This document shows, in pieces, positions 178 to 47,784 of a DNA stretch of 64,000 nucleotides (within the stretch, counting starts at the first letter, position 1; every line of letters begins with the position of its first letter). Under the pieces are notes generated by a model. It ran no database searches. It worked only from the letters and a program-made list of their open reading frames with translations, and had not been told where the DNA came from. The position numbers and the translations under genes are program-made. This DNA is from a virus: positions 13,245 through 77,244 of IMG/VR virus record IMGVR_UViG_3300045988_172457. One strand, given 5' to 3'.

Positions 178-600
178 GTGATTGCTGTGAAACTTGAATC
201 GAATCATCATTCGGTGTTCCTCATGCATTATCATCTCGTGCTCGTCGTGAAATACCGTCGCAAAGTGTTTGATGACACGATTTCCAATCGCGCACGGGAG
301 ATTTTCGAGTACATCGCGCCCAAGTACGGCATCACGTTGGAGGAATGGAATCATGACGTGGACCACGTGCATGTCCTGTTCCGCGCCCAGCCGAAAAGCG
401 AACTGTCGAAGTTCATCAACGCGTACAAGAGCGCCAGCAGCCGACTGCTGAAACAGGAGTTCCCCGGAATCAGACGCAAGCTTTGGAAGGAGTATTTCTG
501 GAGCCGTAGCTTCTGCCTGCTTACCACGGGCGGCGCACCCGTCGAGGTGATACGCAAATACATCGAGAACCAAGGCGAGAAGAGCCGAACCCAAGCATGA
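178..600 (+). CDS. tnpA: IS200-like TnpA, HUH/Y1 single-strand transposase
   Basis: 140 aa with the HVHVL (HUH) motif and the KYRRKVF motif typical of IS200 TnpA. Overlaps tnpB by 4 nt. Confidence 0.85.
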   Translation: MIAVKLESNHHSVFLMHYHLVLVVKYRRKVFDDTISNRAREIFEYIAPKYGITLEEWNHDVDHVHVLFRAQPKSELSKFINAYKSASSRLLKQEFPGIRRKLWKEYFWSRSFCLLTTGGAPVEVIRKYIENQGEKSRTQA

Positions 601-4514: not shown

Positions 4515-5540
4515 TCAGTTGCCGTCGGCCACGCATTGCGTGAGGAACGACTTCGTTTCGGCTTTTTCCCAACTGCTCATGGACAGCTTGTACTTGTCTT
4601 TGATGTACACGCGTTTAGCCATATACGAGCATTGGTACGTCTTGTTGGACGGGAGCCAAATGCTGGGCGTTGCGTCCTTCCACTTGGTCGAGGAACCGTT
4701 CAACGCCTCGTCCTTCACGAGGTTCACGCCCTGCTGTTTGATGTTGTTCGCTTCTCCTTCGGACGCGACGAGCACTTCCGGGTCGTTCGCGTAGGTGATG
4801 CGGTCGCCCTTGCGCGAGTCCTTCCACAGTCCGCTGGCCCAAGCGTCGTTGACCGCCACCACATGGTCGATTTGGACGGCCATGCTGTCCCCGCCTGTTT
4901 TCTTCTGTTTGCCGTTGACGGTCTCGTAGGTGTCGCGTTGGAATTTGATGGTCTTGCCGGTGTATGGGTCTTGGAGGGTTCCGGTGAGCACCTTGCAGTT
5001 CTTGTCCATGGTCACGTCGGTCATGTCGCGTTTGAGGATGTAGTCGCGGGTGGTGCCGTAACCGCAGAGCTGGTTGCTGTTCTGCCATGTGCCGAAGTCG
5101 GTTTTGCGGTTGTATCCTTTGGTGTGCGGGGTTGCGGTTTCGATGTCAGCGAGTTTGTCAAGCGCCTGTTTCGTGGTGATGGGGCTTAAAGCACCTTCAG
5201 GAACGCTTGTAGAGGCTTTTTGTGCTTGACTTGAGGAATTGTCCCCGTTTTGTGTCTGCGTCGTTTCTGAGGGCGTTTCTGTGGCTTCTGGAGTATTGGT
5301 TTGCGAATTGGAGCCGGACGGCTTCAAGGGAGGCTCCTTCAACCCCAATTTCACATCCGGCTTCACCTTGGAATCCTCACCCGGCATCAACTGGGACAGA
5401 CTGTTGATTTCCGGCAATCCGAAAATCTTCGACATGGGAGTCCACAATCCAAGATTCACGATGAGCACCATGGCCGTCAACACGACCAGAATGCCGCCAA
5501 GCAGGGAACCGGCGGACATGCCGCCTTTCTTCTTAGCCAT
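4515..5540 (-). CDS. Membrane-anchored extracellular DUF1524/HNH-like (His-Me finger) nuclease
   Basis: N-terminal TM (LLGGILVVLTAMVLIV), a Ser/Thr/Pro-rich linker, and a C-terminal domain with the GYNRKTDFGTW...CGYGTTRDYILKRDM...IDHVVAV motifs typical of secreted GmrSD-C/DUF1524 nucleases. Confidence 0.65.
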   Translation of the reverse strand: MAKKKGGMSAGSLLGGILVVLTAMVLIVNLGLWTPMSKIFGLPEINSLSQLMPGEDSKVKPDVKLGLKEPPLKPSGSNSQTNTPEATETPSETTQTQNGDNSSSQAQKASTSVPEGALSPITTKQALDKLADIETATPHTKGYNRKTDFGTWQNSNQLCGYGTTRDYILKRDMTDVTMDKNCKVLTGTLQDPYTGKTIKFQRDTYETVNGKQKKTGGDSMAVQIDHVVAVNDAWASGLWKDSRKGDRITYANDPEVLVASEGEANNIKQQGVNLVKDEALNGSSTKWKDATPSIWLPSNKTYQCSYMAKRVYIKDKYKLSMSSWEKAETKSFLTQCVADGN

Positions 5541-32906: not shown

Positions 32907-34601
32907 GTGAAAACCAAAAACCCGTTGAAGGCAACGGTCGCCACGCTTGTGGCCGGTGCCATGGGTTTGGCTGGAGTCGGCTCCGCCATGGCGGCTGATA
33001 CTCGTGTTGACGCATCCAAGTTTGATGCGGCTGCTCGTCAGACGTTGACCGTCGCTGCTAATGGTGATATTAGCAATCGCACGTTGAAGGCTGTGCCGCT
33101 CGCCTACTATTCGTATGCGCAGACTGATGGTACTAATATTACCGGCTTTGACCTGATTGACGCGGGCAAGGCTTCTGCTATTGCTGACGCATTGACTAAA
33201 GCCAGTATTGACACTAAGTCCAAGAAAGACCAGACTGCCGGATACGACTATAATGCGTCCAATCCGATGGTGTGGGTCGTGCAGAATCTCCTTGATTCCG
33301 AGAACAGTCCGTGGGCTGGCAAGCTTCGTGACTTCATCGACCAGTTGAAGAACGAGGCCGCTGTCATCGGCGACAAGGGCACCGCGTTCGCCAAGGGCGC
33401 CGACGCCAAGCATATGACCGCTTCTGTCCGTCCGGGCGTGTACGCGGTCGTGGACACCACCAAGACCGGTCAGGCGTCCATCGTCATGTTCAACGGCACC
33501 GGCATCGATGGCAAGACCACGTTGAAGAACGGCGCCAAGACCTACACGCTGGGCACCGTGGACTATAAGGTACACGGCACCACCGTCACGAAGAAGATTA
33601 CCGCCGCCGAAAACGGCACCGTCGAAAACAGTGGCGCGACCGCCGAAACCGCTATCGGCAAGAAGGTCAGCTTCGAAATGACCAGCAAAGTGCCGAACTG
33701 GACTGGCTACGACAAGTACTATTACGCCATCAACGATACGTATTCCAAGGGCCTGACTTATGACGCGGCCAAGGACAACATGGTCGTGACCGTGGACGGT
33801 AAGACCCTCATCCGCGACACCGATTACAAGGTCACTACTGAGGATGGCAAGTTCCACATCATCTTCGCTCCGACCACCGGTGACTCCACCACCACATCCG
33901 ACATTGTGGCGATGAAAGCCAAGTTCCCGGTCGATGCCGCCGTTGACGTCAAGTACGGCATGTACGTGAACAAGAACGCCGTCTCCGGAACCGCCGACGC
34001 CAACACCAACGAGGTCGAATACTCGCATAATCCGAACACCGTCACCGACCATGAGACCACCCCGGGCCAGACCGACAAGGTGTACGTCGGCAAGTTCACC
34101 CTCACCAAGCACGACACGAACAACGCTCCGCTCGCCGGAGCCGAGTTCAAGGTGTACGAGGGCGACCAGACCACCACCCCGGTCAGGTTCGTCAAGTCCT
34201 CCGACGGCCTGACCTACCGCAAGGCCGACCTGACCGAGAGCACCGGCACCACCGACACCGTCACCAGCGTCGCTACTAGCAATGGCGTGCTCACGCTGAC
34301 CGGCCTCGACGGCAAGTACACGGTCAAGGAGACAAAGAGTCCGTTCAACGGCTCCATCCTGCCGCAGTTCACCCTGACCATCAAGGTGAACCAGTCGAAC
34401 GGCTCCTACATGCTCAGCCAGTTCGATAAGGACGCCAACAATCTGGCTTCCGAGAACGTTGACAAGATGGGTGTGACCGTCATCAACGCCCGCAACATCG
34501 CTGACATGCCGAAGACCGGTGCGGTCTGGCTGTCCATCTTCGGCGTGATGACCGTCCTGTTGGCTGGCGCTTCCGCCCTGCTGCTTCGTCGCAAGGCGTG
34601 A
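32907..34601 (+). CDS. Sortase-dependent major pilin (isopeptide-forming fimbrial subunit) with an MPKTG sorting signal
   Basis: Signal peptide, E-box-like GKYTVKETKSPFNG, and C-terminal ...DMPKTG + TM + RRKA. GTG start with a strong RBS. Confidence 0.8.
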   Translation: MKTKNPLKATVATLVAGAMGLAGVGSAMAADTRVDASKFDAAARQTLTVAANGDISNRTLKAVPLAYYSYAQTDGTNITGFDLIDAGKASAIADALTKASIDTKSKKDQTAGYDYNASNPMVWVVQNLLDSENSPWAGKLRDFIDQLKNEAAVIGDKGTAFAKGADAKHMTASVRPGVYAVVDTTKTGQASIVMFNGTGIDGKTTLKNGAKTYTLGTVDYKVHGTTVTKKITAAENGTVENSGATAETAIGKKVSFEMTSKVPNWTGYDKYYYAINDTYSKGLTYDAAKDNMVVTVDGKTLIRDTDYKVTTEDGKFHIIFAPTTGDSTTTSDIVAMKAKFPVDAAVDVKYGMYVNKNAVSGTADANTNEVEYSHNPNTVTDHETTPGQTDKVYVGKFTLTKHDTNNAPLAGAEFKVYEGDQTTTPVRFVKSSDGLTYRKADLTESTGTTDTVTSVATSNGVLTLTGLDGKYTVKETKSPFNGSILPQFTLTIKVNQSNGSYMLSQFDKDANNLASENVDKMGVTVINARNIADMPKTGAVWLSIFGVMTVLLAGASALLLRRKA

Positions 34602-34736: not shown

Positions 34737-35642
34737 ATGGGAGGGGTTTTGGGAAAACATACGGCGAAACCGAAAGGCTTGGGAAATCGAGCCATAGCGG
34801 GACTTCTCTGCCTAATCCTATCCGCCCTGTCCGGAACCATCCCATTCATTCTCATGATTTCGAACAGCAGCCAATCCAACCGGTTGACCGACTCCCACGC
34901 GCAAGCCGTGGAAAACACTGACGTGAAACGAATCGCCCAAGAGTATGCGGACGCGCAAGCCTACAATCAACGCCTATACGAGGAAGGCCAGCCCATTCTT
35001 GGTGAGGCGGAAGACCCTTGGACAGGCGTCAACAAGTCCGAAACGGACAACACGTATCGGAAGCAACTATCCACCCCCAAGGATGGGGTCATGGCCACCA
35101 TCAAATATCCACGCTTGGGCATCAACCTGCCCATCCGGCATGGCACGTCGCAAAACGTGTTGGCCGCTGGAGCCGGACACTTATATGGTTCCAGTCTCCC
35201 CGTCGGCGGCAAGAACACGCATACTGTCATATCCGCGCACACGGGTTTGGCAGACCAGCTCATGTTCGACAAGCTACGAGGCTTCGGCAGTGAAGCCAAA
35301 AAAAGTGACGTCTTCTATCTGATAACCGCCGGACATACGCTCGCCTACAAGGTCACAAGCATTGATGTGGTAGACCCATCCGATTTCACCAAACTGAAAA
35401 TCGTCGCCGGAAAAGACCTCGCCACACTCCTAACCTGCACGCCATACGGCATCAACAACAAGCGACTCCTAGTGACCGGCACGCGCACCAGCATGCCGCA
35501 CCCCGCACCCAGACCCGAAAACGCGCCGAAAGACCACACGAACCAATGGCTCATACTGTACGTCGGCGGCTTCTGGCTTGCGGTAATCATCATCACCATT
35601 CTCATCATCCGTAGAAAAAACCACGCAAAGAAGGAACACTAA
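34737..35642 (+). CDS. srtC: Class C (pilus-specific) sortase
   Basis: TLLTCTPYG catalytic-Cys motif, N- and C-terminal TM segments, and position between the pilin and tip protein genes. Confidence 0.8.
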   Translation: MGGVLGKHTAKPKGLGNRAIAGLLCLILSALSGTIPFILMISNSSQSNRLTDSHAQAVENTDVKRIAQEYADAQAYNQRLYEEGQPILGEAEDPWTGVNKSETDNTYRKQLSTPKDGVMATIKYPRLGINLPIRHGTSQNVLAAGAGHLYGSSLPVGGKNTHTVISAHTGLADQLMFDKLRGFGSEAKKSDVFYLITAGHTLAYKVTSIDVVDPSDFTKLKIVAGKDLATLLTCTPYGINNKRLLVTGTRTSMPHPAPRPENAPKDHTNQWLILYVGGFWLAVIIITILIIRRKNHAKKEH

Positions 35643-38600
35643 TGGGTATTCTCAAAAAGCATGTGGCACATCCGGTAGCATTATTGGCCGCAATCGCCAC
35701 ACTGTCATCCGGCCTGATATGCATGACCAATCCGGTAGCCTCTCCGAAAGCGCATGCGGACGAGTTGAAACCCGCATATGCTACTGCGAAAATCGTTAAG
35801 AAAGCCGACGGTACGGGGCATGGCACGAGTTCGCAAACGTTCGTGAATTCGAAGAACGGGTTCGCCACGGGCGATGATTCCCCTACCGATGGCGTGGTCG
35901 CATCCGGTGATACGGTCGAATATTCTCTCACGTTGAACTTCAACGCGGCGGGCAAGCGTACCATCAACGTGAAGTTCGACTTGGATGACGCGCCGTATTT
36001 GCAGACTGCTGACGGTGGTGGCTTCTGCCAGCCGGGACAACTCGTCACCGCGAAGAAAAACAGTGACGGCTCCTGCTCCTACACGGTTCCAGCCGGTGGC
36101 GTGGAAACCATGACCCAAACCTTCTATCTGAAAGCAAAAGACACGGGAGGCTTGGTCAAGCCGGGTCAGATTCCGAAAATCGTCGTCGCCCGCGAAGGTG
36201 GAACGTCAACCACGTATCGTACGGATGAGCTGACTGTAGTATCCGCTCCGGCGGCTGACTTGGTCATTGACAATGGCGGCAATCCGGTGAAAGGCCAATA
36301 CTCGTATGAGCATCGTACTTATTGGAGTCAGAACACCGATGCGACCGGTGATTTCACTATTCGTACCGACGCGTTGACCTATCCGGGTTATTCGTCCACG
36401 AAGGGCGCGTCCACCAGCATCGATTGGACTACCAAAGTGGATATTTCCGACTTCCCGCAGGGCACCGTGTGGACTGTAGGCGGTCAGCGGATTACCCGTA
36501 ACAGTGATAAAGAACAGTATTTGACCGTATCCAGTGGCAAAAACGGTACGGCGGCGACAATCAGCTACAGGATTCCCGCCGGAACCGACGCGCTCAAAAA
36601 CATGAAAGAAGGAGACGTCAAATATTACGATGTCCACCTTGTTCCCGACGAAACCGTGTTCAGCGTCAAAGACGATAACGGCAACGCACTGTTGAACATG
36701 GGCAAGGGCGGCGAACCCGGCTGGAACATTGGACGGGACAAGAGCACCTACAACAAGGATACGGGTGCCCGCGTCGGCTACCCGTACGCGAACAATGACT
36801 GGTCACGAGCCATCATCCAACGGCTCAAGCCGACTCCAGCTGGCAAGATTCCACTGTTCGGCAAAGGACTGCAACGTCCTAACACTGCGTCCAAGACCAT
36901 GTTCGACAAGGAGAATCTGACGTTCGACGCCGCCGAAGGCAAAGCCGACATCTACCATTACTATTCCGACGGTTCCGGCGACACCGTGTCCCGTGGAACG
37001 CAAGTCAAAACCATTTTGGAAATGTATGCGGCGAACGTTACTGCGGACAAGCTTAAAAACACTACGCCGACCATGCAGGATGAGTGGGATAATACGCGCA
37101 TGCGGTGGGATGGAAGCTTGGAAGTCACCCAGAACGGTGCTCCGGTTTCCGACTACAAAGTTCAATGGGCTGATAGCAAAGACAATTGGCATGACGGGGA
37201 ACCATCCGACACGGACGCTCCGAACGTCAAGAAGATTCGGGTGACGTTCAACCCCGACACGTTGACTTTAGGAAAGGGTGCGCCGAACGTTCAGGTCACG
37301 TTCAACACGCTCGCCATAGCCGACGTGTCCAAAGGCAATGTGGAAGCTTTGGATACGCTGACCGCATGGCTTACCGAAGACGATAAGGCGAGCGTCACCA
37401 ATTGGGTGTGGATTGCCAAGCCGGTAGACCCGACCACCAGTATCGACATCAGTCTGAAAGCCTACGATGGTGAAGGCAATCAAGTGTATGCGAACAACAG
37501 TTCCAATCACCCGTCCGGAAGCGCAGTCGATTTGACTCCCGGCATGCGAGTGGATTATACGGTCACGGAACAGTTGCGCACCATTCTCCTGTCCAATACA
37601 AGCATGACGCCGACCATCACGGTGCCGAAACCGAAAGGCTTGTACAATCCGACCTGTGATGATTCGTTCTGGCAGATGAAAGTGGACGGGAATAATCTCG
37701 TGTTCACGCCACGTTCTGGCAAAGTCACGCCGGAAGTAGACCGTATGGGGTCGGCCACTTTGCCTGACCTGCATTTCAGTGGCATCGTATCCAATCTCGC
37801 CACCGGGACTGTGACCGCCAGTGCGAATATGAGCGTGGACGTTGACGAGAACGGCGCATTGCAAGCCCAAACCATCAAAAGCAATACGCCCAGCGTCCCA
37901 TTCCCCGTCTCCAATGCGGAAACCAACAGTGGCATCATGCGTGTGAAGACCACGAAGGCTGAAATCGGTGACCCGCTTACTTGGGAGTTCAACGTGTACG
38001 GCAAGGGCGGCGGTCACACCGGCACCATGGATAGCATGCTACTGCTTCCTGCGAATGGTGATGAGAAGTACGTGCAGGACAAGCTGGTCGAATATGAGCG
38101 TGGATACAGCAACTATCATGGCTCCTACGAACTGACCCAGCCCATCACGGTCAATATGGACAATTCGACCAGTACGACCGTCTACTATTCAACCACCACC
38201 GGAAAGAAGTCGGATAATCCGGCTGACTACGAGTGGAAGACATGGGACAAGTTGACGGATTCGGACAAGAAGAACATCACCGCCATCCGACTGACCAGCA
38301 CAGTCGTCGCATCCGACGAAAAACTATCCTATTCCGCAGTGAACGGCACCATCACGCTCAACCCGTCCGACAATGTGAAAGACGACAAGTACACGCTATG
38401 GTTGGGCCGCAACTATTATTCCGACACGGCAGGCAAGCCAGCAGGCAACCAGCCATGGCCTGACGTGGCGAACGTCGTCGTCGGTAGCATTTCCGGTACC
38501 GTCTGGTGGGATAAGGATGAGAACACGCTCATCGGAGATGGTGAGGAACGTATCGAAGGCGTGGAAGTCATCCTCAGCAAGCAGGATGCGAATGGTGCTT

Positions 38601-41245
38601 GGCAGTCCGTCAAGACAGTGAAAACCGACAAGGACGGGTATTACGAGTTCGACCTGCTCCACTCCGGCACGTACAAGACTTCGGTGAAACGCAATACGGG
38701 CACCAGTACGGGCGACGGCGTGCAAACCCAAGTCAAAACCTACTACGGCAAATTGGAAGACGTGACGAACACGCGCAGCTGGTCTAACAAAATCAAGTCC
38801 AACGCGACAGACACGTCCGACGACATCCACCTAGGTATCGGCATCAACCAGACCCACGTGGACTACGGTTACGCGAAACCAGACCTGAAAGCCACCGTAG
38901 ACAAAACCGTCACCGGCACCAATTGCACGGACACAAAATGCGTCATCAACTGGGATGTGAAGGTGCAGAATAAGGGCAAGAGCACCGAGAAGGCACCGAG
39001 TGTACCACCACTGAAGACATTTGCCGCAGGCGGCGCGCATTCACTCGCCTTGGATTCGGAAGGTCACCTATGGGCATGGGGATATAACCATGATGGCACG
39101 GGAACTGACCAGAGCACGCCGATTTTGGTTTCCGACGGTCATGTTTGGAAGTCTGGTGTTCAGGTTGTTCCTGATACTTCCACTGAGTCTTCCGGCACGT
39201 CTCGTTTTGATACTTCCAGTGTCGTGTCTGACCGTATGAGTGCTGATGTGCATGATGTGACGGCTACGGCGGGTACTGTGAGTATTGAATCCGGTGGTGC
39301 GAAGCAGGTTGCGACGAGTGGCGACCATAAGTTTGTGTTGACGAATGAGGGCTTGTTGTATGCGTGGGGTAATAACCAGTATGGTCAATTGGGTTTCAAG
39401 CCTGACTCCACGAACACGAGTACTCCGGTGAACGTGAACAAGCCGACCATCATCAACGGTAGTTGGCTGAAAGTCGCCGCCGGTGGCAAACATTCCGCCG
39501 CCATCAGCACGGACGGACACCTGTACACGACCGGTTGGAATAGTAGAGGCCAATTGGGTACGGGTGATACGGACAATCGTTTCGAATGGACGGAAGTCGC
39601 TTCGGATAAGACGTTCACGGACGTGGCATGCGGCAACCAGTTCACCGTCGCCATCGCCAGTGACGGAACCCTGTGGGCCACGGGAAACATTGGCAACAAG
39701 ACTTACACGAGTCTGACCCAGATTAGCTCCGTCACATCCACGCAAGTCAGCGCAAGCATGGACTCGTTCATCGCATTGACCAAGAACGGCGGAAGCCTGT
39801 ATGCGGGCGCTTCGACCGCATTAACCCCAAAAGGAAGCGGCTATATGCAGGTGGCCGCCGCATTCGGTCAAGTATACGCGTTGACCAATTCGGGCACCGT
39901 CCAACCGGTAGCCACCCTGAACCGCGACGGCTATTCGCCCAACGTGTCCAGTCTGAAGGACATCACACTCATCAGCGGCGGCTATCAGACCTTGTACGCC
40001 ATCGACAAGAACCAACACTTGTGGGCTTCAGGCTGGAATGGTGACGGACAATTGGCGAACGGCAAGACCGGCAACGGCATGTATTGGACGGACGACTCCA
40101 CCGGTAACAACACGGACATCATCGGCACGCCAGTCGATACGGGCATCATCGCCTCCGACGTGGCGGGCGGCGACCGTGACGTGCTCATTCTTGGCAAGCA
40201 GGTCATGATTGCGGGCTTCGACCCGTATGGTGACGGTAAGACGGGTGGCGCGCGTTCGATCGGTTTGAAGGGTATGGCGGTCTCGTCCGACCCGACCGCC
40301 GTACCTGTCGAACCATCGAGCGAAACCACTGAGAATGGGTTGACTACCCGCACGTACAATCTGCCGTATTCGATTGAGCCGGGCGGCTATGTCATCTACC
40401 ATTTCACCGGCACAGTTGACCGTGAGACCGCTGACATGACGGGCAAAGACCAGACGTACATTGACGAGTGGGTTAAGAAGAATACGAAGACCATTCTCAA
40501 CCAAGCATGGTTCGACTCCGAACACACGCCATATTCGGGCACGCCACACGCAAGCGGCAAAAACAAGCCGAACACTCCGGACGCTACGAAACTGGATGCC
40601 AACACGAATGATGTGACCGGCAATCCGACATGCCGCACCGACACGGACTATACGGAGGAAGGACGCCAACACTGGTTCAGCACGTCCGATGAGGACTCCT
40701 GCGACCAAGTCGGCACCATCATCACACCAACCACCACCGCGAAGAAACTCGGTTCCATCAGCGGCCTGTATTGGGAGGATACCAACAAGAACGGCATTCA
40801 AGATGAAGGTGAGAACACGCATTTCGCCGGTCAGACGGTCATTCTGACTGACGAGAACGGCAAACAGTTGGCAACCACCAAGACCGACAAGGATGGCAAG
40901 TACATTTTCAAACGTCTGGACGCGAACGGCAACAAATACCGTATCCAATTCACCAAAGTGAACCACCGGGACTTCACCACGCCGGATGTGGGAGACAAGA
41001 CTCCTGCGGCGGATGGAAGCTCCACTGATTCGGATGCTTACACGGATGAAGCCAACAAGCTGACCATCACCCTCACCCAAGATGCTCCAACCAAGGAGCA
41101 TGTGGATGCGGGTGTCCTGCCTGAAACATGGTTGGCGACCATGCCGCACACGGGCATGGGATTGCTGTTGCCGCTCCTCATGCTCGTCAGCATCAGCGGA
41201 CTCGTCGCGGCAATCATCCTCCTACGAAAGAAGGAAGAACAGTGA
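35642..41245 (+). CDS. Giant sortase-anchored surface protein / putative pilus tip adhesin (1867 aa) with a ~7-blade RCC1-repeat beta-propeller and CnaB/SdrD-B-like domains. Its sorting signal is MPHTG.
   Basis: Signal peptide. RCC1 repeats (HLWAWGYNHDGTGTDQ, LYAWGNNQYGQLG, LYTTGWNSRGQLGTG, LWASGWNGDGQLANG). SdrD-B-like ISGTVWWDKDENTLIGDGEERIEGVEV... and LYWEDTNKNGIQDEGEN... segments. C-terminal LPETWLATMPHTG + TM + RKKEEQ. Confidence 0.8.
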   Translation: MGILKKHVAHPVALLAAIATLSSGLICMTNPVASPKAHADELKPAYATAKIVKKADGTGHGTSSQTFVNSKNGFATGDDSPTDGVVASGDTVEYSLTLNFNAAGKRTINVKFDLDDAPYLQTADGGGFCQPGQLVTAKKNSDGSCSYTVPAGGVETMTQTFYLKAKDTGGLVKPGQIPKIVVAREGGTSTTYRTDELTVVSAPAADLVIDNGGNPVKGQYSYEHRTYWSQNTDATGDFTIRTDALTYPGYSSTKGASTSIDWTTKVDISDFPQGTVWTVGGQRITRNSDKEQYLTVSSGKNGTAATISYRIPAGTDALKNMKEGDVKYYDVHLVPDETVFSVKDDNGNALLNMGKGGEPGWNIGRDKSTYNKDTGARVGYPYANNDWSRAIIQRLKPTPAGKIPLFGKGLQRPNTASKTMFDKENLTFDAAEGKADIYHYYSDGSGDTVSRGTQVKTILEMYAANVTADKLKNTTPTMQDEWDNTRMRWDGSLEVTQNGAPVSDYKVQWADSKDNWHDGEPSDTDAPNVKKIRVTFNPDTLTLGKGAPNVQVTFNTLAIADVSKGNVEALDTLTAWLTEDDKASVTNWVWIAKPVDPTTSIDISLKAYDGEGNQVYANNSSNHPSGSAVDLTPGMRVDYTVTEQLRTILLSNTSMTPTITVPKPKGLYNPTCDDSFWQMKVDGNNLVFTPRSGKVTPEVDRMGSATLPDLHFSGIVSNLATGTVTASANMSVDVDENGALQAQTIKSNTPSVPFPVSNAETNSGIMRVKTTKAEIGDPLTWEFNVYGKGGGHTGTMDSMLLLPANGDEKYVQDKLVEYERGYSNYHGSYELTQPITVNMDNSTSTTVYYSTTTGKKSDNPADYEWKTWDKLTDSDKKNITAIRLTSTVVASDEKLSYSAVNGTITLNPSDNVKDDKYTLWLGRNYYSDTAGKPAGNQPWPDVANVVVGSISGTVWWDKDENTLIGDGEERIEGVEVILSKQDANGAWQSVKTVKTDKDGYYEFDLLHSGTYKTSVKRNTGTSTGDGVQTQVKTYYGKLEDVTNTRSWSNKIKSNATDTSDDIHLGIGINQTHVDYGYAKPDLKATVDKTVTGTNCTDTKCVINWDVKVQNKGKSTEKAPSVPPLKTFAAGGAHSLALDSEGHLWAWGYNHDGTGTDQSTPILVSDGHVWKSGVQVVPDTSTESSGTSRFDTSSVVSDRMSADVHDVTATAGTVSIESGGAKQVATSGDHKFVLTNEGLLYAWGNNQYGQLGFKPDSTNTSTPVNVNKPTIINGSWLKVAAGGKHSAAISTDGHLYTTGWNSRGQLGTGDTDNRFEWTEVASDKTFTDVACGNQFTVAIASDGTLWATGNIGNKTYTSLTQISSVTSTQVSASMDSFIALTKNGGSLYAGASTALTPKGSGYMQVAAAFGQVYALTNSGTVQPVATLNRDGYSPNVSSLKDITLISGGYQTLYAIDKNQHLWASGWNGDGQLANGKTGNGMYWTDDSTGNNTDIIGTPVDTGIIASDVAGGDRDVLILGKQVMIAGFDPYGDGKTGGARSIGLKGMAVSSDPTAVPVEPSSETTENGLTTRTYNLPYSIEPGGYVIYHFTGTVDRETADMTGKDQTYIDEWVKKNTKTILNQAWFDSEHTPYSGTPHASGKNKPNTPDATKLDANTNDVTGNPTCRTDTDYTEEGRQHWFSTSDEDSCDQVGTIITPTTTAKKLGSISGLYWEDTNKNGIQDEGENTHFAGQTVILTDENGKQLATTKTDKDGKYIFKRLDANGNKYRIQFTKVNHRDFTTPDVGDKTPAADGSSTDSDAYTDEANKLTITLTQDAPTKEHVDAGVLPETWLATMPHTGMGLLLPLLMLVSISGLVAAIILLRKKEEQ

Positions 41246-41256
41246 AAGGAACAAGA

Positions 41257-42189
41257 ATGGGCGAACACGCCACACAATCACACGGGAGCCGTCACATGGT
41301 TCGGCGGCTCCTCGCCACCCTCGCCATCATGAGCGCGGTCTGCGGCGGCTTCCTCACCGGTAGTGCAATAGCCGCCGAACCAGCCAAATGCAATACTGGC
41401 GTGGACAAGGTTTGCTACGCGGGCTATAACGCGGCGGGATTGAAACAGATTGCCGACGATTTAAGCGAGAAAGGCAAAGGAAGCACATACTATGCCGCAA
41501 TGGAAAAGAACCTGACCGACGGGGTCAAAGGCACGCTCACCCTATCAGACGGCTCGAACCTCCCATTCCGACTCATCGGCATCCTCCACGACGACAAAGC
41601 CGACGGAAGTGGACGAAAAGCAGGATTGACGTTCATGGCTTGGAACGCGTTACCGAAAGCGTATGCCATGAACAATAGTCACACCAATAATGGCGGCTGG
41701 CGTGACAGTCTTCTCCGCAATCAGATGAACAATGGTGAAATCTGGAACCAATTCCCAACCGACTTCCAAAACAACGTCACAACCGTGCTGAAACAAACCA
41801 ACAACATGGCCTACGGAAGCACAGTCGGTTCAAGCGCGTCAGCCACGGCAGACAAAGTATGGCTCGTCTCCTACCGTGAACTCGTACCAACCTTATACGA
41901 TGGTTGGAAGACCTCTGGTGGTTTCCAAGCGTTGAATCAGGAGGGAAGCCAATACGAGTATTTCCACGGTAAGGTGACAAATAACTGGTCGGGTAATAGC
42001 ATTCTCTCCGGCATCTACAAGACCGTTTCCGGTTCCACTCCTCTTGGTGCTAGCTACGGCAGTTGGTGGGAGCGTTCGCCCCACCTGGGCAACAACTACT
42101 TTTTCCTCCTAGTGCACTCGCACGGCGACCCCAGCTACAGCGGCGGTGCCTACGATCGCTGCTCCGTTGTCCCCGCTTTCTCCTTCTAA
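41257..42189 (+). CDS. DGR target gene: secreted protein (310 aa) with the variable region (VR) at its C-terminus
   Basis: Signal peptide (LLATLAIMSAVCGGFLTGSAIA). Its 3' 168 bp match a downstream template repeat with adenine-specific differences. Start chosen at ATG 41257, which has an RBS. Confidence 0.7.
   Translation: MGEHATQSHGSRHMVRRLLATLAIMSAVCGGFLTGSAIAAEPAKCNTGVDKVCYAGYNAAGLKQIADDLSEKGKGSTYYAAMEKNLTDGVKGTLTLSDGSNLPFRLIGILHDDKADGSGRKAGLTFMAWNALPKAYAMNNSHTNNGGWRDSLLRNQMNNGEIWNQFPTDFQNNVTTVLKQTNNMAYGSTVGSSASATADKVWLVSYRELVPTLYDGWKTSGGFQALNQEGSQYEYFHGKVTNNWSGNSILSGIYKTVSGSTPLGASYGSWWERSPHLGNNYFFLLVHSHGDPSYSGGAYDRCSVVPAFSF
42022..42189 (+). repeat. DGR variable region (VR)
   Basis: Aligns with TR 42820-42987 at a fixed offset of 798 bp. 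About 23-24 mismatches lie at TR adenines and only 1 non-A mismatch lies in the body. Three non-A mismatches in the last 10 nt look like IMH (homing-signal) end differences. Confidence 0.8.
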
Positions 42190-42201
42190 TCCCCAATCCT
42201 T

Positions 42202-42228
42202 GGGTGGTGGGGTTCATCCCCACCACCC
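42202..42228 (+). promoter_or_regulatory. Perfect 11-bp-stem hairpin immediately 3' of VR (DGR target-site hairpin/cruciform candidate)
   Basis: GGGTGGTGGGG-ttcat-CCCCACCACCC lies 12 nt after the target stop codon. Confidence 0.6.
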
Positions 42229-42261
42229 CTCCAAACTCAAATCTCACACAAAAGGAGTCCT

Positions 42262-42777
42262 ATGACGGTTCCCGCAAGCAAACGTACAAAAGCCAAAAGC
42301 GAATATGCGAATCAGGCCAGAATCGTGCTCTTGGCTACCAGAAATCTGTTCCGCAAATGGCCTAAAAGCCGTAACTGCATTGAAACCGTGCATGTCATGC
42401 ATATCGCCTACGAAATGTACTCCTCCGCCTACAGTGCCGACATCATTTATGCAAGCACTGTAGAAGAGCATGAGATGAAACTGCAACTGTTGTGCAAGGC
42501 CCAAGGCATGCTGAACTCACTCTCCGGTCTTGTGGACGATTGGATGGAGTTTCCTCCACGGGAAAAAGACTTGGAAGCCTACAGGAAATATCCGGAAGGC
42601 GACCCCAGATACAATCCCGTCGTCAAGGAGAAGAAATTCGTGAACTATGCGGGAATCCTCTACAAGGCGATGGGCGTGTTCACCGGAGCCGTCAAGTATG
42701 AGCGAGACCAGTTGAAGAAAGCTAAAAACGCCGAGTCGAAAACGAACACTATAATGGATACTCGGGCGCAAGCCTAA
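42262..42777 (+). CDS. avd: Putative DGR accessory variability determinant (Avd-like, 171 aa, basic)
   Basis: Position between VR and TR, as in the canonical DGR cassette order. Basic helical small protein with a good RBS. The assignment is by synteny. Confidence 0.5.
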   Translation: MTVPASKRTKAKSEYANQARIVLLATRNLFRKWPKSRNCIETVHVMHIAYEMYSSAYSADIIYASTVEEHEMKLQLLCKAQGMLNSLSGLVDDWMEFPPREKDLEAYRKYPEGDPRYNPVVKEKKFVNYAGILYKAMGVFTGAVKYERDQLKKAKNAESKTNTIMDTRAQA

Positions 42778-42819
42778 AATATAATTGAACAAAATCGGCC
42801 ATATCCAAACTATGGTGAC

Positions 42820-42987
42820 ACCGTTTCCGGTTCCACTCCTCTTGGTGCTAACAACAACAATTGGTGGGAGCGTTCGCCCAACCCGAACAACAACAACAAT
42901 TTCCTCCAAGTGAACTCGAACGGCGACCCCAGCTACAACAACAATGCCAACAATCGCTACTCCGTTGTCCCCGATTCCTCTTACCAA
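42820..42987 (+). repeat. DGR template repeat (TR), rich in AAC/AAT codons
   Basis: Near-identical to VR except at adenines. TR AAC AAC AAC AAT corresponds to VR AGC TAC GGC AGT, and similarly elsewhere. Confidence 0.8.
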
Positions 42988-43167
42988 AAACTAACATCAG
43001 ATAGGCCAGTAGCCCAATGGGTGAAAGCCTCCCGAAGGGGAAGGGGATATGGTCGAATGCGCGGCCCCTCGAAAAATGGGTTGCGTGTGAAATAGGTTGA
43101 GGGAGATATTAAGACTGTCGGAAACGACGGATACTCGCCCCTTAAGCTGGGCGTCCAACATCATTGC

Positions 43168-44397
43168 ATGTCTTGGGTTGTTGCCGACGACCTGCCCTCA
43201 ACCATTCTTTTCTCTTTCCCTAGTGAAGGAAGCATTAAAATCGTGAATGCGAGTCAAAGACGTAGAAGACGCCAACGCAGACTGCAACAACGCTCGGATG
43301 ATAAGTACAGGAAGCTCCACCGTTACATCGACTTCCAACAAACATTCGGATTCGACGCGCTCTACCAAGCCGCAAGAAAATGCAAACGCGGCGTCACATG
43401 GAAAAACACAGTGTTGAACTTCGACAATAGGCGTGCCGTCAACTGTTGGAAACTCGCCCAAGAATTAGAGGACGGCACATACAAGAAGAGAGCGCCAATC
43501 CGATTCGACATTTCCGAACGAGGCAAACTCCGCCACATCAGCGCGGTATCCTTCCGAGACCGGGTGGTGCAACGCGCCTTATGCGACAACAGTCTCGTCC
43601 CCATCGTGGAAAGCCAACTGATATACGATAATGCGGCAAGCCTACCGAAACGTGGAACATCGTTCGCCCGAAAACGGTTCGAACTACACTATAAGCGGGC
43701 TTTGGGCAAATGGGAGCATCCGTATGCTGTCATCTTCGACTGTGCCAACTATTTCGGAAGTATCAGCTCCCAACGAGCGTTCGATATGATTTCCACCCTG
43801 TACCGGAGCATCGCCCGCACCGGACGGGAGAAGCAGGATGTGGAACGGATTCTAACCGTATTGAGAATCTTCGTATTGGACGAACCTCACTTGGGTTTAG
43901 GCAATCAGACAAGCCAAACCATGGCTATCTGGTATTTGAACAAGGTTGACCACTGGTGCATGTCGCAAGGATTCTACGGACGGTATATGGATGATGCCTA
44001 CTGTTTCTGCAAGAATCGTGAACAGGCCGAACGTGTGCTGGCCGGTTACGAGCGGCATGTCAATCAATTGGGATTGCGGTTGAACAAGCGCAAGACCCGC
44101 ATAGTGGACTGTCGCACCGGTCAACTCACATTCCTGAAACGCGTATACAGCGTACAGGATGACGGCAGTATTCTTATCCGCATGCACCATAAGGCGTTGC
44201 GTGCAAGCCGACGGCATGCGCGTAACCTTATCCGCTCATATGATGGCGTGCATGTGGGATTGCGGACAGTTCAGGATTCTTGGACGAGCCATGAGAGCAC
44301 ACTGTCGGGTCTAACTCACCGTCGTGGACTGTGCGCTCGGGAGAAAGCGTGGTATCGGAGGCATTGTGAAATGCGGAAGCTGGCTTTTCACCCGTGA
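43168..44397 (+). CDS. DGR reverse transcriptase
   Basis: Conserved DGR-RT N-terminal block (AARKCKRGVTW...ELEDGTYKKRAPIRFDISERGKLRHISAVSFRDRVVQRAL). The motif-4 SQ variant (LGNQTSQTMAIWYL) is a DGR hallmark. YMDD catalytic motif. Confidence 0.85.
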   Translation: MSWVVADDLPSTILFSFPSEGSIKIVNASQRRRRRQRRLQQRSDDKYRKLHRYIDFQQTFGFDALYQAARKCKRGVTWKNTVLNFDNRRAVNCWKLAQELEDGTYKKRAPIRFDISERGKLRHISAVSFRDRVVQRALCDNSLVPIVESQLIYDNAASLPKRGTSFARKRFELHYKRALGKWEHPYAVIFDCANYFGSISSQRAFDMISTLYRSIARTGREKQDVERILTVLRIFVLDEPHLGLGNQTSQTMAIWYLNKVDHWCMSQGFYGRYMDDAYCFCKNREQAERVLAGYERHVNQLGLRLNKRKTRIVDCRTGQLTFLKRVYSVQDDGSILIRMHHKALRASRRHARNLIRSYDGVHVGLRTVQDSWTSHESTLSGLTHRRGLCAREKAWYRRHCEMRKLAFHP

Positions 44398-44554
44398 TTT
44401 CCGGACTTTCCAGATTGGTGGAGGGGTGTAATCTGCTGGAAGCGGTGGCGCAGAATCTTCCGCTTCCTCAATCGTTTGGATGAGATTTCGTGAGGCTTGG
44501 ATTGTATCGTATTTCACTCGGCATGCTTGTCGACTAGTTTTTCTTCCCAGCTTG

Positions 44555-44577
44555 GTGTTACACTGGGTTTACTTGCA
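44555..44577 (+). promoter_or_regulatory. Member of the repeated promoter/leader motif family (GTGTTACACTGGGTTTACTTGCA)
   Basis: Matches the family consensus TGTTAyACTGG..(10-12 nt)..CA. Lies ~90 nt upstream of the 44667 start. Confidence 0.4.
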
Positions 44578-44666
44578 TTTCCTTCCTCGGGACTTCGCCC
44601 ATGTGGGGCTTTAGAGGTTATCAGCGCATTGGTCAGAGTATGCCGTTTGAGTGAAAGGAAACTGTC

Positions 44667-45278
44667 ATGGCAGGTTTTGATGATATTACGGTCACTCGCA
44701 GTGATGTCCGTTTGAAGGTTAAGGCTCCGTATAATCCGTTGTTCGCACGTCGCTCCCGCGCGTTGGGTGGAACGTTTGATGACAAGTTGAAGACTTGGAC
44801 GTTCGATATGCGTGTGGAAAGGCTGGTGTTCGAAGCTTTAGACAAATATTTCTGGTGGCATAAGGGCGTGGACGCTGAAAAGCGTGTCACAGTCACCATC
44901 GACCCCTACGACTACTTGTACGCGTACTCCAAGCAGGATAGCGACATTATCTGGTTCGCTGGTCGAATCCTAGTCGAAAAATATCAGCCCGACCGTCCAC
45001 CGCGCATGATGCCGAATGTGGCTCTCGTGGATGGCATGTGGCCTAAAACCGGCTTGTATACGGGGTTGAATCTCAGTCCCGACAAACTCCGATTATTGGT
45101 ATGGGATGTTCCCACCAGTTTTCTGGAACGACTGTCGTCCGGCAAGTATGAGTTGTCTGAGCCGGATGGTGACACGTTGACTGCGGTTGACGTTCGTATT
45201 CAGGCTGTGGAGGAACGGTTAGGCCGGTTGAGGGAACTCCGAACCCGACTCGCCTCTAATAGTGAGGATGGTGAATGA
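44667..45278 (+). CDS. Hypothetical protein (203 aa)
   Basis: ORF with RBS GAAAGGAAAC before the ATG. Confidence 0.6.
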   Translation: MAGFDDITVTRSDVRLKVKAPYNPLFARRSRALGGTFDDKLKTWTFDMRVERLVFEALDKYFWWHKGVDAEKRVTVTIDPYDYLYAYSKQDSDIIWFAGRILVEKYQPDRPPRMMPNVALVDGMWPKTGLYTGLNLSPDKLRLLVWDVPTSFLERLSSGKYELSEPDGDTLTAVDVRIQAVEERLGRLRELRTRLASNSEDGE

Positions 45279-46282
45279 TGCTCTCCGTGCCGATTAATGG
45301 TCAAGTCCAGTCGCGTCTCATTCCGCCCACGTTCGTGGAAGACAACATCAGCGACATGTTCAAGGCTGTGGACGCCGGACACAATATCGTCGTGACGGCA
45401 GTGGACGAGTACGGTAATCGAACCAGTATTACCACGCCGGATAATGTGAATCATGACATGCTGGGGCGTCCTCTCGAATTCGCGTCCCATCCCGTACTGA
45501 TGCGGAATGTGCGCCGTTGGATGGTTTGGCTGTTGCAAGCGCAATACTGCAAGGATTACAAGTGGGATACGAACAGGCTTGGAGGTTGGATGGAAGTGTT
45601 GGGTTTACCAGCCGACCTTGATATTCCCGTAACGGAGGAACATTTACGCGTGTTGAAGCCTGTGTTTAACAAGGATGATGCCGACCCGTATCGGCTTGTC
45701 GCACGATACGACAAGCAACATTATGCTTCATGCACCCTCAGCACTCTCATACGGTTAGCCGAACAAACCACGCCGAACTATGCCCTGAACAATCCCGCCC
45801 GCTGGTGTCAAACCGACCGATACCGCAAACTCAGCATCCAACCCAATCCGAAAGAAAACTGGGACGGAATGGACAGGGTACGCGACTGTTGGAGCGGATG
45901 CGAATGGGCATACCCCGCATTGGAACGCTACTATAATCCGATTCGACTATTACGCGACGAATACCGGCGGGGAGGACTACCTGAAACCTTCCACTATCCA
46001 ATACACACGACAAGAGGAGAATACCGGTTGGCGAAAGGACAAATCAGCCCCCACGCAACAATCCTCCTCAACGGCAAGCCGGTAGGACTCATGTTCAGCG
46101 ACGATTGCGAGGAACCATTCACCGACCGGATACCACCCGAATGGTGCGCCACACCCTTACCGGAAAACTATAAGACCACGCCACTCAACCGAAACATTCC
46201 CGTAAACGGCGAATTCAAACCATCATTCCAGCAAGCCATGCTGGGATTCGTGGAATGGTATGAGAAAACGCACAAGGGATAG
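45275..46282 (+). CDS. Hypothetical protein (335 aa)
   Basis: ORF translationally coupled (ATGA) to the upstream gene. Confidence 0.6.
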   Translation: MMLSVPINGQVQSRLIPPTFVEDNISDMFKAVDAGHNIVVTAVDEYGNRTSITTPDNVNHDMLGRPLEFASHPVLMRNVRRWMVWLLQAQYCKDYKWDTNRLGGWMEVLGLPADLDIPVTEEHLRVLKPVFNKDDADPYRLVARYDKQHYASCTLSTLIRLAEQTTPNYALNNPARWCQTDRYRKLSIQPNPKENWDGMDRVRDCWSGCEWAYPALERYYNPIRLLRDEYRRGGLPETFHYPIHTTRGEYRLAKGQISPHATILLNGKPVGLMFSDDCEEPFTDRIPPEWCATPLPENYKTTPLNRNIPVNGEFKPSFQQAMLGFVEWYEKTHKG

Positions 46283-46389: not shown

Positions 46390-47547
46390 CTAGTTCTCCG
46401 AGCGTTCGCTGATATTCTCCCGCATCTGCAAATAAGCCCCATGCTCACGCAAGTAATCCCGCAAATACGGCATTTTGAAAGCGACTTCACCGTAACCGAC
46501 CGGCTCAATCAAATCGTTCTCAATCAGCTTGGTTCTATACACGTTGGCGAACTGTGGCGAACGGTTCAACCGACGGGCGATTTCACCTGTATTCGACACC
46601 GTATCATCCACCGACATGGCAAGTAGATAGTTCACCGCATGGGATGGCAAGCCATGCAATGCTGGGGCGTGAACCATATCCCCTAGTTTGGCTTGGGCTT
46701 TTTCGATACCCTTGACCGCGTCCTCCTCGGTCACTTGATTCACATGACCGTTGGTTTCGGACATCCGCCAAGCCCAATAGCCCACCAGCTGAATCATGAA
46801 CGGATAACCGTGAGTGGCGTTGGTCAACCGTATCAGCGTTTCCATTCCGGCTTTCTTCTCGCCGCTGAAGGATTCCTCGAACGCCTTCAATACCTTTTCC
46901 GTGGGGACAGACCCCAAATGGTATCGTTCCGCCCGTTGCAGGAAAGTGATGGCATTGTCGGACAGCACGTCGTTCACTGCGGACGGCAGTCCGGCGAAAA
47001 CGAACGCGATGTTCCGTCCTTCCCGGATGAGATGCTGCACTGCGGTAGACAGTGCTCTGATTTCGTCCATGGAACCGGACTGCACCTCATCCAATGTGAT
47101 GAGGATTCCTTGTTTGGTCTCGTTCATTTTGTCCAATCGTTTTCCGACCGCTTGGCGGAGTGTCAGGGAACGTTCCTCATTATGTTCGAGTTCGATTCTC
47201 CCTAAGCTCAGTTCAAGATTCCCGACGTCCCCTTTCAATCCTACTTTGGGCATGTCGTATGCGGATATGCGGGTGGTGTCCTTGCCGGTGAGCGCGTCCA
47301 CGAGTCTTCGGGTGAAGCCTTTGTCGGCGCTTTCGTTGTAGATTTGCCAACCTTGTTTTTTGGCGTGCTCTCCCAGTGTGTCCAGCATGACTGTTTTGCC
47401 GACTCCTCTGGCTCCTGTGAGGAACATCAGCCGTCCGGGGCTTCCCACACCGTCTTTCAGCGCATAGTCGAAGTCTTCGATGATTTCTTCTCGTCCGACG
47501 AGTATCGGTGGGATACGTCCGGCGGTTGGTTTGAATGGGTTGGTCAT
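46390..47547 (-). CDS. AAA-type ATPase with a C-terminal winged-helix domain (ORC/Cdc6-like 'archaeal ATPase' family), 385 aa
   Basis: Walker A GARGVGKT, Walker B ILITLDEVQ. Start placed at the Met with RBS AAGGAAACAGAC. The ORF-track 5' extension reads through an AT-rich promoter. Confidence 0.7.
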   Translation of the reverse strand: MTNPFKPTAGRIPPILVGREEIIEDFDYALKDGVGSPGRLMFLTGARGVGKTVMLDTLGEHAKKQGWQIYNESADKGFTRRLVDALTGKDTTRISAYDMPKVGLKGDVGNLELSLGRIELEHNEERSLTLRQAVGKRLDKMNETKQGILITLDEVQSGSMDEIRALSTAVQHLIREGRNIAFVFAGLPSAVNDVLSDNAITFLQRAERYHLGSVPTEKVLKAFEESFSGEKKAGMETLIRLTNATHGYPFMIQLVGYWAWRMSETNGHVNQVTEEDAVKGIEKAQAKLGDMVHAPALHGLPSHAVNYLLAMSVDDTVSNTGEIARRLNRSPQFANVYRTKLIENDLIEPVGYGEVAFKMPYLRDYLREHGAYLQMRENISERSEN

Positions 47548-47784
47548 GTCTGTTTCCTTGATTTTATAATAATTATAATAAGTATAATACTTTAAAAAAG
47601 CATGTACCAAGAGGTTAAGTTCGATAATGGGCGAGCTTTGTCGAGAGTAGAGGTTGACGACCTAAACGGAAGTGGTTTAAAATAGATTCTTGTTTGAGAT
47701 AAGGTCACTTTTTCTAAAAGGCATTGAGGGACGGTTCCCGTTTCGGTTTCCGTTCCTCTTTTTTGTGTTGTTTTCATACTTGAG

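Follow-up and report, generated by a model that had tools for sequence, protein, structure and literature searches.

We describe here a diversity-generating retroelement (DGR) at positions 41257 to 44397 of a 64,000-nucleotide stretch of DNA (positions 13,245 to 77,244 of the IMG/VR record IMGVR_UViG_3300045988_172457; hereafter, the window). We are highly confident that the element is a canonical, currently active DGR, in which a target gene ending in the variable region (VR) is followed by an accessory variability determinant gene (avd), a template region (TR), a spacer and a reverse transcriptase (RT) gene. Its anatomy, the adenine bias of its repeats, the identities of the RT and the accessory protein, the fold of the target, and a natural variation that is restricted to VR are documented below, with coordinates given in Table 1. 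An earlier reading made from the letters of the DNA (hereafter, the sequence-only reading) had interpreted the whole element as a DGR with the order target-VR, small basic open reading frame (ORF), TR, 180-nt spacer and RT; every component it named was present, and the ORF map gave the same order.

Within 40000-46000, a repeat search returned a single outstanding direct repeat, namely VR (42022-42189) and TR (42820-42987). The two copies are 168 nt long, align without gaps, are 83% identical and lie 798 nt apart, exactly as the sequence-only reading had placed them. Base-by-base comparison gave mismatches at 28 of the 168 positions, and 24 of the 28 were at TR adenines, which make up 47 of the 168 TR positions overall (one-sided Fisher/hypergeometric p = 2.3e-12). 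Thus, tabulating the mismatches by TR base in a computed alignment, which had been suggested as a check, bore out the adenine enrichment. At the mutated adenines VR reads G, T or C, and in the frame of the target gene the mutated adenine occupied codon position 1 or 2 in every case. The lone non-A mismatch in the repeat body was at 42086 (VR T, TR C) and the other three (42179, 42183 and 42187) were near the repeat end, in agreement with the one body difference and three end differences counted earlier. The earlier figure of about 23-24 mismatches at TR adenines held as a count, but two of them (42176 and 42185) are not products of mutagenesis; the same differences are present in every locus, indicating that they are fixed markers of the repeat ends.

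As had also been noticed, TR is rich in AAC and AAT (AAY) codons, which account for 17 of its 56 codons. By the genetic code, each AAY codon can turn into a codon for any of 15 amino acids and never into a stop codon, and the AAY codons alone allow 15^17 (~1e20) possible protein variants, all of them stop-free. When both strands of the 64-kb window were searched with the non-adenine positions of TR, no third VR-like copy was found, indicating that there is one target in these 64 kb. Adenine-restricted differences between TR and VR were also present in 15 related loci and in 3 distant loci.

The related loci, 21 in number, were collected by exact-sequence look-up of the accessory protein and its relatives, and by an IMG/VR scan with a nine-sequence alignment. 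Locus L002, which comes from a different ENA sample, aligned with the window without gaps over 13,888 nt, with 21 differences in the 168-nt VR and 0 in the other 13,720 nt. Similarly, locus L015 and the window (3,215 nt aligned) showed 21 differences in VR and 2 in the other 3,047 nt. There were 19 distinct VRs among 21 copies and 7 distinct TRs among 18; the TR variants track lineage, and seven loci have the exact TR of the window yet differing VRs. These results agree with the earlier proposal that the element is active or recently active, and the pattern that it had proposed to look for, a heterogeneous VR against an invariant TR, was found across related contigs. Of the 47 TR-adenine positions, 38 varied among the VRs, and each VR differed from its own TR by 15-27 body mismatches per locus, 0-2 of which were at non-A positions. 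In addition, lineage-specific non-A states of TR were mirrored by the cognate VR in 67 of 67 cases, a figure that counts sequences rather than independent events and covers ~15 columns. TR and VR therefore undergo concerted evolution, the outcome to be expected of a TR that repeatedly overwrites VR, which lends indirect support to a transfer of TR information to VR.

Table 1. Positions of the DGR components and of the neighbouring surface-protein genes in the 64,000-nt window.
Feature	Position	Strand	Remarks
DGR target gene	41257-42189	+	310 aa; putative signal peptide, DUF6273 / C-type-lectin-like domain, C-terminal VR
Variable region (VR)	42022-42189	+	mutagenised positions ~42052-42161
IMH-like 3' end of VR	42162-42189	+	GC-rich CTCCGTTGTCCCCG (42162-42175), then 14 nt
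GC-rich hairpin/cruciform-type inverted repeat	42202-42228	+	arms 42202-42212 / 42218-42228
Accessory variability determinant (Avd), sequence-divergent subfamily	42262-42777	+	171 aa, pI 9.38; assigned by fold
Template region (TR)	42820-42987	+	47 adenines, 17 AAY codons; IMH*-like end 42960-42987
Spacer TR-RT	42988-43167	+	180 nt; presumed 3' part of DGR RNA
DGR reverse transcriptase	43168-44397	+	409 aa from ATG 43168
SpaA/GramPos_pilinBB pilin	32907-34601	+	
Sortase	34737-35642	+	
RCC1-repeat/SdrD_B surface protein	35642-41245	+	1,867 aa; C-terminal membrane anchor

The 3' ends of the repeats resemble a pair of initiation of mutagenic homology (IMH and IMH*) sequences. The GC-rich 14-nt segment CTCCGTTGTCCCCG is invariant across loci and directly precedes the differing last 14 nt, which read GCTTTCTCCTTCTAA in VR and GATTCCTCTTACCAA in TR, with the same five differences in all loci examined. 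An invariant GC-rich segment followed by five fixed differences is consistent with an IMH/IMH* pair, and by analogy with the Bordetella phage BPP-1 DGR we infer that the VR 3' end would function as IMH. The 11-bp perfect hairpin that had been noted after VR proved to be real: it starts 12 nt past the target stop codon and has a 5-nt loop, TTCAT, with a dG of -14.7 kcal/mol and z = -4.85 against shuffled sequences. Compensatory changes were found in its stem, with the arms GGGTGGTGGGG/CCCCACCACCC in the window, GGTGGGTGGGG/CCCCACCCACC in L003 and GGGGGTGGGG/CCCCACCCCC in L008, and with the loop TTCAT in all three. Experiments in BPP-1 showed that the hairpin stem structure is required and the stem sequence is not (PMC3240598), and the compensatory changes match this rule of structure over sequence. 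The distant loci L010, L028 and L030 have different, unrelated GC-rich hairpins at the equivalent site. Note that the hairpin lacks a T tract and was not called as a terminator in the promoter/terminator scan, which gave no signal above chance.

The target gene begins at ATG 41257 with AAAGGA 8 nt upstream, and its product matches Pfam DUF6273 (PF19789) at residues 129-309 (E 1.9e-15, above the gathering score). VR forms the C-terminus of this DUF6273 / C-type-lectin-like (CLec) fold, the scaffold type expected of DGR targets, in line with the first of the two folds (CLec or Ig-like) that had been suggested earlier for testing on the target C-terminus. Among 64 close target homologues, all 17 TR-Asn (AAY) positions had 2.2-3.1 bits of entropy and 7-13 residue types, and the scaffold residues (WWERSP, VVPAFSF) were invariant. 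The target family splits into dozens of 90% clusters, whereas for the RT there is essentially a single cluster, with 930 sequences. The N-terminus of the target comprises a basic stretch, a hydrophobic helix and a conserved A-x-A site, a residue pattern that suggests a Sec signal peptide. Because VR extends to the stop codon, the target has no C-terminal sorting signal, indicating that it is not itself a sortase substrate. A lipoprotein anchor was also considered and is unlikely, as Cys29 is not conserved in the alignment and the preceding residues misfit a lipobox.

The RT matched RVT_1 in Pfam (E 7e-13) and phrog_1423 'reverse transcriptase' in PHROGs (E 5e-56). Its best solved relative was PDB 8ub7_A, the Bordetella DGR RT (bRT; E 7.9e-13), with 8ub7 residues 4-261 aligned to RT residues 50-323; 8ub7 is a DGR ribonucleoprotein whose B chain is Avd. 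The comparison with DGR RTs that had been proposed as a check therefore came out in favour of a DGR RT, and the features that the sequence-only reading had recognised in this protein were located as well. Specifically, the motif-4 variant is L244GNQTSQ250, which fits the DGR RT signature [I/V/L]GxxxSQ as opposed to the QGxxxSP of intron and retroviral RTs (PMC7826257), YMDD is at residues 273-276, and the N-terminal block aligns with bRT residues 4-35. In the 8ub7_A alignment, RT R122 and L244 correspond to bRT R74 and I181, both of which were found in experiments on that enzyme to promote mutagenesis at adenines (PMC7826257). The curated NCBIfam models for group II intron, retron, Drt and Abi RTs were all far below their cutoffs, and a scan of genome contigs with the RT alone gave no match. 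The RT start codon is uncertain. ATG 43168 lacks a ribosome-binding site and GTG 43243 has GAAGGA upstream, and assemblies disagree between 409 aa from ATG 43168 and 328 aa from GTG 43411; the latter call would drop the N-terminal block that aligns to bRT residues 4-35.

The accessory gene lies between the target and TR, directly upstream of TR-RT, and has the same position in L010, L028, L030 and L031. Its product has the Avd fold, which is an up-down four-helix bundle of ~110 residues; a beta-hairpin is inserted at residues ~100-119, and the C-terminal helix is long. The published pI of Avd proteins is 9.5 +/- 0.7 (PMC5758913), and that of the accessory protein is 9.38. The suggestion of a small basic Avd-like ORF is thus backed by fold, position and pI, but no sequence profile recognises the protein as Avd: the Avd family PF05635 of Pfam matched 0 of 23 aligned family members, and the 23-member profile retrieved nothing from PDB. 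Among 1.84 billion cluster representatives, all scanned with HMMER, only 29 relatives were found. In the distant loci, the accessory gene accompanies VR/TR pairs (L010, L028 and L030) or an RT downstream (L031), and this divergent Avd subfamily is hence consistently linked to DGRs. Since the Avd is unseen by Pfam and NCBIfam profiles, profile-based pipelines would score the cassette as Avd-less; the 23-sequence alignment of the accessory protein could seed a new profile.

A 17-mer, GGCGACCCCAGNTACAA, occurs in exactly three copies in the 64 kb, one in avd (42598-42614), one in VR (42124-42140) and one in TR (42922-42938), against a chance expectation of 0. Both genes have it in frame, with the reading E-G-D-P-R-Y-N in Avd and N-G-D-P-S-Y-N in TR, and within avd it is part of the beta-hairpin insertion. 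The Bifidobacterium-type lineages possess the 17-mer, and the distant family members lack it; its copy in avd may be an old capture of TR/VR-derived sequence, or a coincidence.

The spacer between TR and RT presumably makes up the 3' portion of the DGR RNA. Its block GGGGAAGGGGATATGGTCG (43037-43055) is common to a relative from Ruthenibacterium (L010), and the block GGGGAAGGGGAYATGGTCG is likewise common to the spacers of the window and L010. AAGGGG is invariant in the spacer of six lineages, the remaining alignment being too divergent for covariation analysis. An RNA-level constraint had been considered for the near-identical spacers of L020 and L021 and was dropped, as these two loci are mosaics in which everything to the right of the TR breakpoint is 98-100% identical.

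By homology with BPP-1, the element would work as follows. A transcript spanning TR and the spacer would be bound by the RT with the basic Avd as helper, and the RT would copy TR into cDNA faithfully except for misincorporation opposite adenines. The cDNA would then replace VR, with the GC-rich IMH and the flanking DNA hairpin setting the 3' boundary and the efficiency, and TR would be spared because its IMH* end differs at the five fixed positions. The expected outcome is a diversified ligand-binding face on a secreted CLec DUF6273 protein. We infer the RNA intermediate, the Avd-RT complex and the functions of IMH and the hairpin from the Bordetella system; what the target binds, and what it does for the cell, are likewise deductions.

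The cassette has a wider distribution, in which intact, mosaic and deleted forms occur. The closest named target homologue (86%) is from Bifidobacterium pseudocatenulatum. In two assemblies of this species, GCA_020526265.1 (L026) and GCA_001686045.1 (L027), with contigs of ~185 kb, the pilin-sortase-adhesin-DUF6273 order is kept, homology to the window ends at 42419 and restarts at 46439, no RT was detectable, and the sole TR-like sequence was VR itself. These breaks indicate that a ~4-kb deletion has taken the 3' part of avd, TR, RT and the two ORFs at 44667-45278 and 45275-46282. L026 and L027 have an identical VR and an identical target protein. The deletion leaves a 52-aa avd remnant, and the VR hairpin of the remnant carries a C-to-T change in its 3' arm. 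The close RT sequences all come from metagenome assemblies, with no named isolate having the RT at high identity.

The two ORFs are on the plus strand, overlap, encode 203 and 335 aa, and directly follow RT in all intact loci; neither belongs to a Pfam family, and one weak match, to phrog_18108, was obtained. When the IMG/VR contigs L020 and L021 were compared with window 40000-46282, the adhesin 3' end, target and avd were 76-81% identical, and the spacer, RT and both downstream ORFs were 98-100% identical. These identities mark L020 and L021 as recombination mosaics with a breakpoint inside TR.

Among distant relatives, L010, a metagenome-assembled genome contig of Ruthenibacterium lactatiformans (CAVECB010000045.1), has a homologous cassette with an RT 51% and an accessory protein 42% identical to those of the window. 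Its VR/TR pair is 173 nt long with 16 of 16 body mismatches at adenines. The VR forms the end of a 1,587-aa repeat protein, and the C-terminal domain of this protein shares 33% identity with the window target. L028 (a chimpanzee-gut contig) and L030 have adenine-biased VR/TR pairs around the accessory gene, and L031 has an RT after it. The DGR lineage thus spans Bacillota and Actinomycetota. In L011 (uncultured Eubacteriales, CAVJWZ010000014.1), positions 3-872 hold the 3' end of a DUF6273-type target gene (44% identity across 90 aa) and, after it, a truncated Avd-like ORF (~80 aa matched), with no TR repeat and no RT within 5.9 kb; it is apparently a decayed copy of the lineage.

The window has 53% G+C, and a tRNA scan found no tRNA genes in it. 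Upstream of the target are, in order, genes for a Band_7 protein, a SpaA-type pilin, a sortase and the 1,867-aa surface protein (adhesin), whose stop codon is 11 nt from the target start. The adhesin ends in ...LPETWLATMPHTG, a hydrophobic helix and RKKEEQ, a sorting motif that is not plain LPXTG. The target gene is probably co-transcribed with this sortase-dependent pilin/adhesin operon, a location that favours a role of the diversified protein in surface binding or adhesion, most likely, over one in phage tropism. Fifteen of 31 window ORFs matched the first 100 kb of the Bifidobacterium breve megaplasmid pMP7017 at 24-59% identity, with the backbone order kept (DUF1524/GmrSD, RepA region, 1,343-aa protein, AAA ATPase, ParA/CobQ, DnaB, DUF2786 and 3'-5' exonuclease). 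Gene content and order therefore place the element on a Bifidobacterium megaplasmid of the pMP7017 family, with B. pseudocatenulatum as the closest named host. None of the three DGR genes had a counterpart in the first 100 kb of pMP7017. That plasmid carries an analogous cluster of pilin, InlB-repeat adhesin and class C sortase, followed by a CAP-domain protein where the window has the DGR target. Elsewhere, the window encodes an IS605-family TnpB (597-1766, plus strand; HTH_OrfB_IS605, OrfB_IS605, Cas12f1-like_TNB), a GmrSD_C/DUF1524-type nuclease (4515-5540, minus strand) and an AAA_16 STAND-like ATPase (46390-47610, minus strand), the last ~2 kb downstream of RT and on the opposite strand.

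Several points weigh against parts of this interpretation. Published hairpins of this kind lie 4-34 bp from VR and have a stem of 7-10 bp and a GRNA loop of 4 nt (PMC3240598), a consensus from which the hairpin here deviates in its 11-bp stem and its 5-nt TTCAT loop. The RNA of TR plus spacer was no more stable than shuffled sequence (z -0.32) and had no Rfam match, the Rfam scan of the window being empty at gathering thresholds. The accessory protein has no sequence match in Pfam, NCBIfam or PDB, and four-helix bundles are common, so that its fold and position are strong evidence for Avd but not proof of function. The strains behind L026 and L027 may be clonally related. The VR diversity is known between contigs only, which leaves the rate of diversification to inference, and the ligand of the target and its link to the pilus are deduced from gene order only. 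Finally, IMG/VR files locus-bearing contigs of 110-217 kb as viral, contrary to the plasmid view.

This filing raises the question of whether the element resides on a large (~217 kb) phage, whose DGR would vary a receptor-binding or tail protein for host tropism, as do most gut DGRs with DUF6273 targets. The contigs listed as viral (L012, L014, L016-L021 and L023) are 111-217 kb long, two of them 216.8 and 217.1 kb, the published DUF6273 DGR targets are phage proteins, the closest annotated phage relative of the RT is from Roseburia phage Shimadzu (33% identity), and the window contains DUF2786 and some PHROG families of unknown function. The backbone, however, follows the order of conjugative pMP7017 (RepA region, DnaB, ParA/CobQ) at 35-59% identity. 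The 15 window ORFs scanned against PHROGs included no virion structural family, that is, no capsid, terminase, portal or tail, in a window covering 64 of ~217 kb. At the DNA level there was no match in 50,697 phage records (distant mode) and none in plasmids (near mode). In addition, the N-terminus of the target resembles a signal peptide, and the target gene starts 11 nt after the pilin-sortase-adhesin cluster. We therefore regard a phage location as highly improbable, and the viral label probably reflects a misclassified megaplasmid. A similar misfiling of a megaplasmid as a huge phage has been reported for the unrelated 'Hodor' megaplasmids (PMC12934698). These were considered as members of the same group and rejected, as they have Bacillota hosts, exceed 300 kb and carry their DGRs inside prophages.

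Two further explanations concern the DGR itself. It could be a relic, the VR diversity being past and the cassette no longer mutagenic in the sampled populations, and the ~4-kb deletion in two B. pseudocatenulatum isolates and the apparently decayed L011 show that DGR loss occurs. However, 21 differences in VR against 0 substitutions in 13,720 nt outside it, between L002 and the window, indicate that VR has changed orders of magnitude faster than the background since these two split; the ORFs are all intact, the catalytic and signature motifs are conserved, and TR is unchanged in seven loci with differing VRs, which makes a relic extremely unlikely. The repeats could also belong to an ordinary duplication or a recombination/gene-conversion cassette, as in silent-copy antigenic variation, with the RT as an unrelated neighbour of group II intron or defence type. 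Recombination in the region is real, as seen from the TR breakpoint of the L020/L021 mosaics, and NCBIfam gave a sub-threshold group II intron maturase match (87 bits against a cutoff of 300) and weak Drt/retron matches. Gene conversion cannot, however, explain adenine-restricted differences (p = 2e-12) that recur independently in at least 15 loci; the RT carries [I/V/L]GxxxSQ rather than QGxxxSP, has a DGR RT as its best solved match and leaves non-DGR models far below cutoffs, and the order of target-3' VR, avd-like gene, TR and RT recurs in L010 and partly in three other distant loci. There is thus practically no chance that this explanation is correct, and we retain that of an active, plasmid-borne DGR.

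The prototype of such elements is the BPP-1 DGR (mtd-VR / avd / TR / brt), to whose RT that of the window is distantly homologous (E 7.9e-13). Similarity to the BPP-1 Avd is not detectable in sequence, and the Avd here is ~50 aa longer, with the beta-hairpin insertion and an extended C-terminal helix. The BPP-1 hairpin has 8 bp and a GAAA loop, compared with an 11-bp stem and a 5-nt TTCAT loop here. The BPP-1 target is a trimeric phage tail-fibre tip, and that of the window is a DUF6273 protein of 310 aa, secreted and plasmid-encoded. DUF6273 targets have been described for gut-phage DGRs, in nd4/nd12 ('tentaclins'), the Faecalibacterium prophages Lelie, Roos and Pioen, and Toutatisvirus (PMC10743442, PMC11792537, bioRxiv 10.1101/2024.10.15.618418). 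Like these, the present DGR has a DUF6273 target resembling a C-type lectin, with VR at the domain C-terminus as in most published cases, and the window RT is detectably related to those of nd4/nd12 and the Faecalibacterium phages (25-30% identity). Those DGRs reside in phages or prophages and diversify receptor-binding or head-decoration proteins of the virion, whereas the present one is on a plasmid-like replicon, with a signal-peptide-like target at a pilus/adhesin operon.

In Bacteroides, DGRs borne on integrative and conjugative elements (ICEs) diversify the tip adhesins of type V pili (Macadangdang et al., bioRxiv 10.1101/2024.11.15.621889). The present element resembles them as a cellular DGR on a conjugative-type mobile element of a human gut commensal, with adjoining pilus/adhesin genes and with a VR that differs between hosts while TR is constant. 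It differs in the sortase-dependent Gram-positive pili, the megaplasmid, the Actinomycetota host and the target without a sorting signal, and its pilus association is deduced from the 11-nt intergenic gap only. The same study reported an uncharacterised Actinomycetota DGR group enriched in infants (bioRxiv 10.1101/2024.11.15.621889). With the Ruthenibacterium DGR of L010, the element shares the VR/avd/TR/RT order, the WWER scaffold codons, a CCCCG(C/A)TT IMH and the spacer block mentioned above; L010 differs in its host phylum (Bacillota), its 1,587-aa repeat-rich target, and its hairpin, which has another sequence and a 13-bp stem. In the searchable literature, bifidobacterial DGRs have been described from prophages only, where they target tail proteins (PMC8705816; bioRxiv 10.64898/2026.02.18.706556), and retroelements go unmentioned in a comparison of pMP7017-type megaplasmids (PMC10832533).

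In its adenine bias, its RT, its target and its VR-restricted variation, the element is a DGR, and much has already been published on DGRs, also on ones with DUF6273 targets. New in the searchable literature are a plasmid-borne bifidobacterial DGR adjoining a pilus/adhesin operon, a rare Avd subfamily that is invisible to profiles, and natural deletion variants. Near-identical plasmids differing just in VR, together with deletion variants with a frozen VR, provide an internally controlled natural example of DGR activity. We also put forward, as a speculation more likely wrong than right, a joint reading in which the secreted lectin is a partner of the plasmid pilus and the 1,867-aa adhesin, and the helper is an unrecognised Avd subfamily. 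If this is true, the element would be the Gram-positive equivalent of the DGRs at type V pili in Bacteroides, the Avd subfamily could account for some of the DGRs now scored as 'Avd-less', and a conjugative Bifidobacterium megaplasmid would, within one and the same host, retune the binding of host glycans or recipient cells in adhesion or mating-pair formation. Bifidobacterium, the host genus, is important in infant gut colonisation, and a plasmid-borne DGR at a sortase-pilus/adhesin operon would extend DGR-tuned adhesion from Bacteroidota to Actinomycetota gut commensals.

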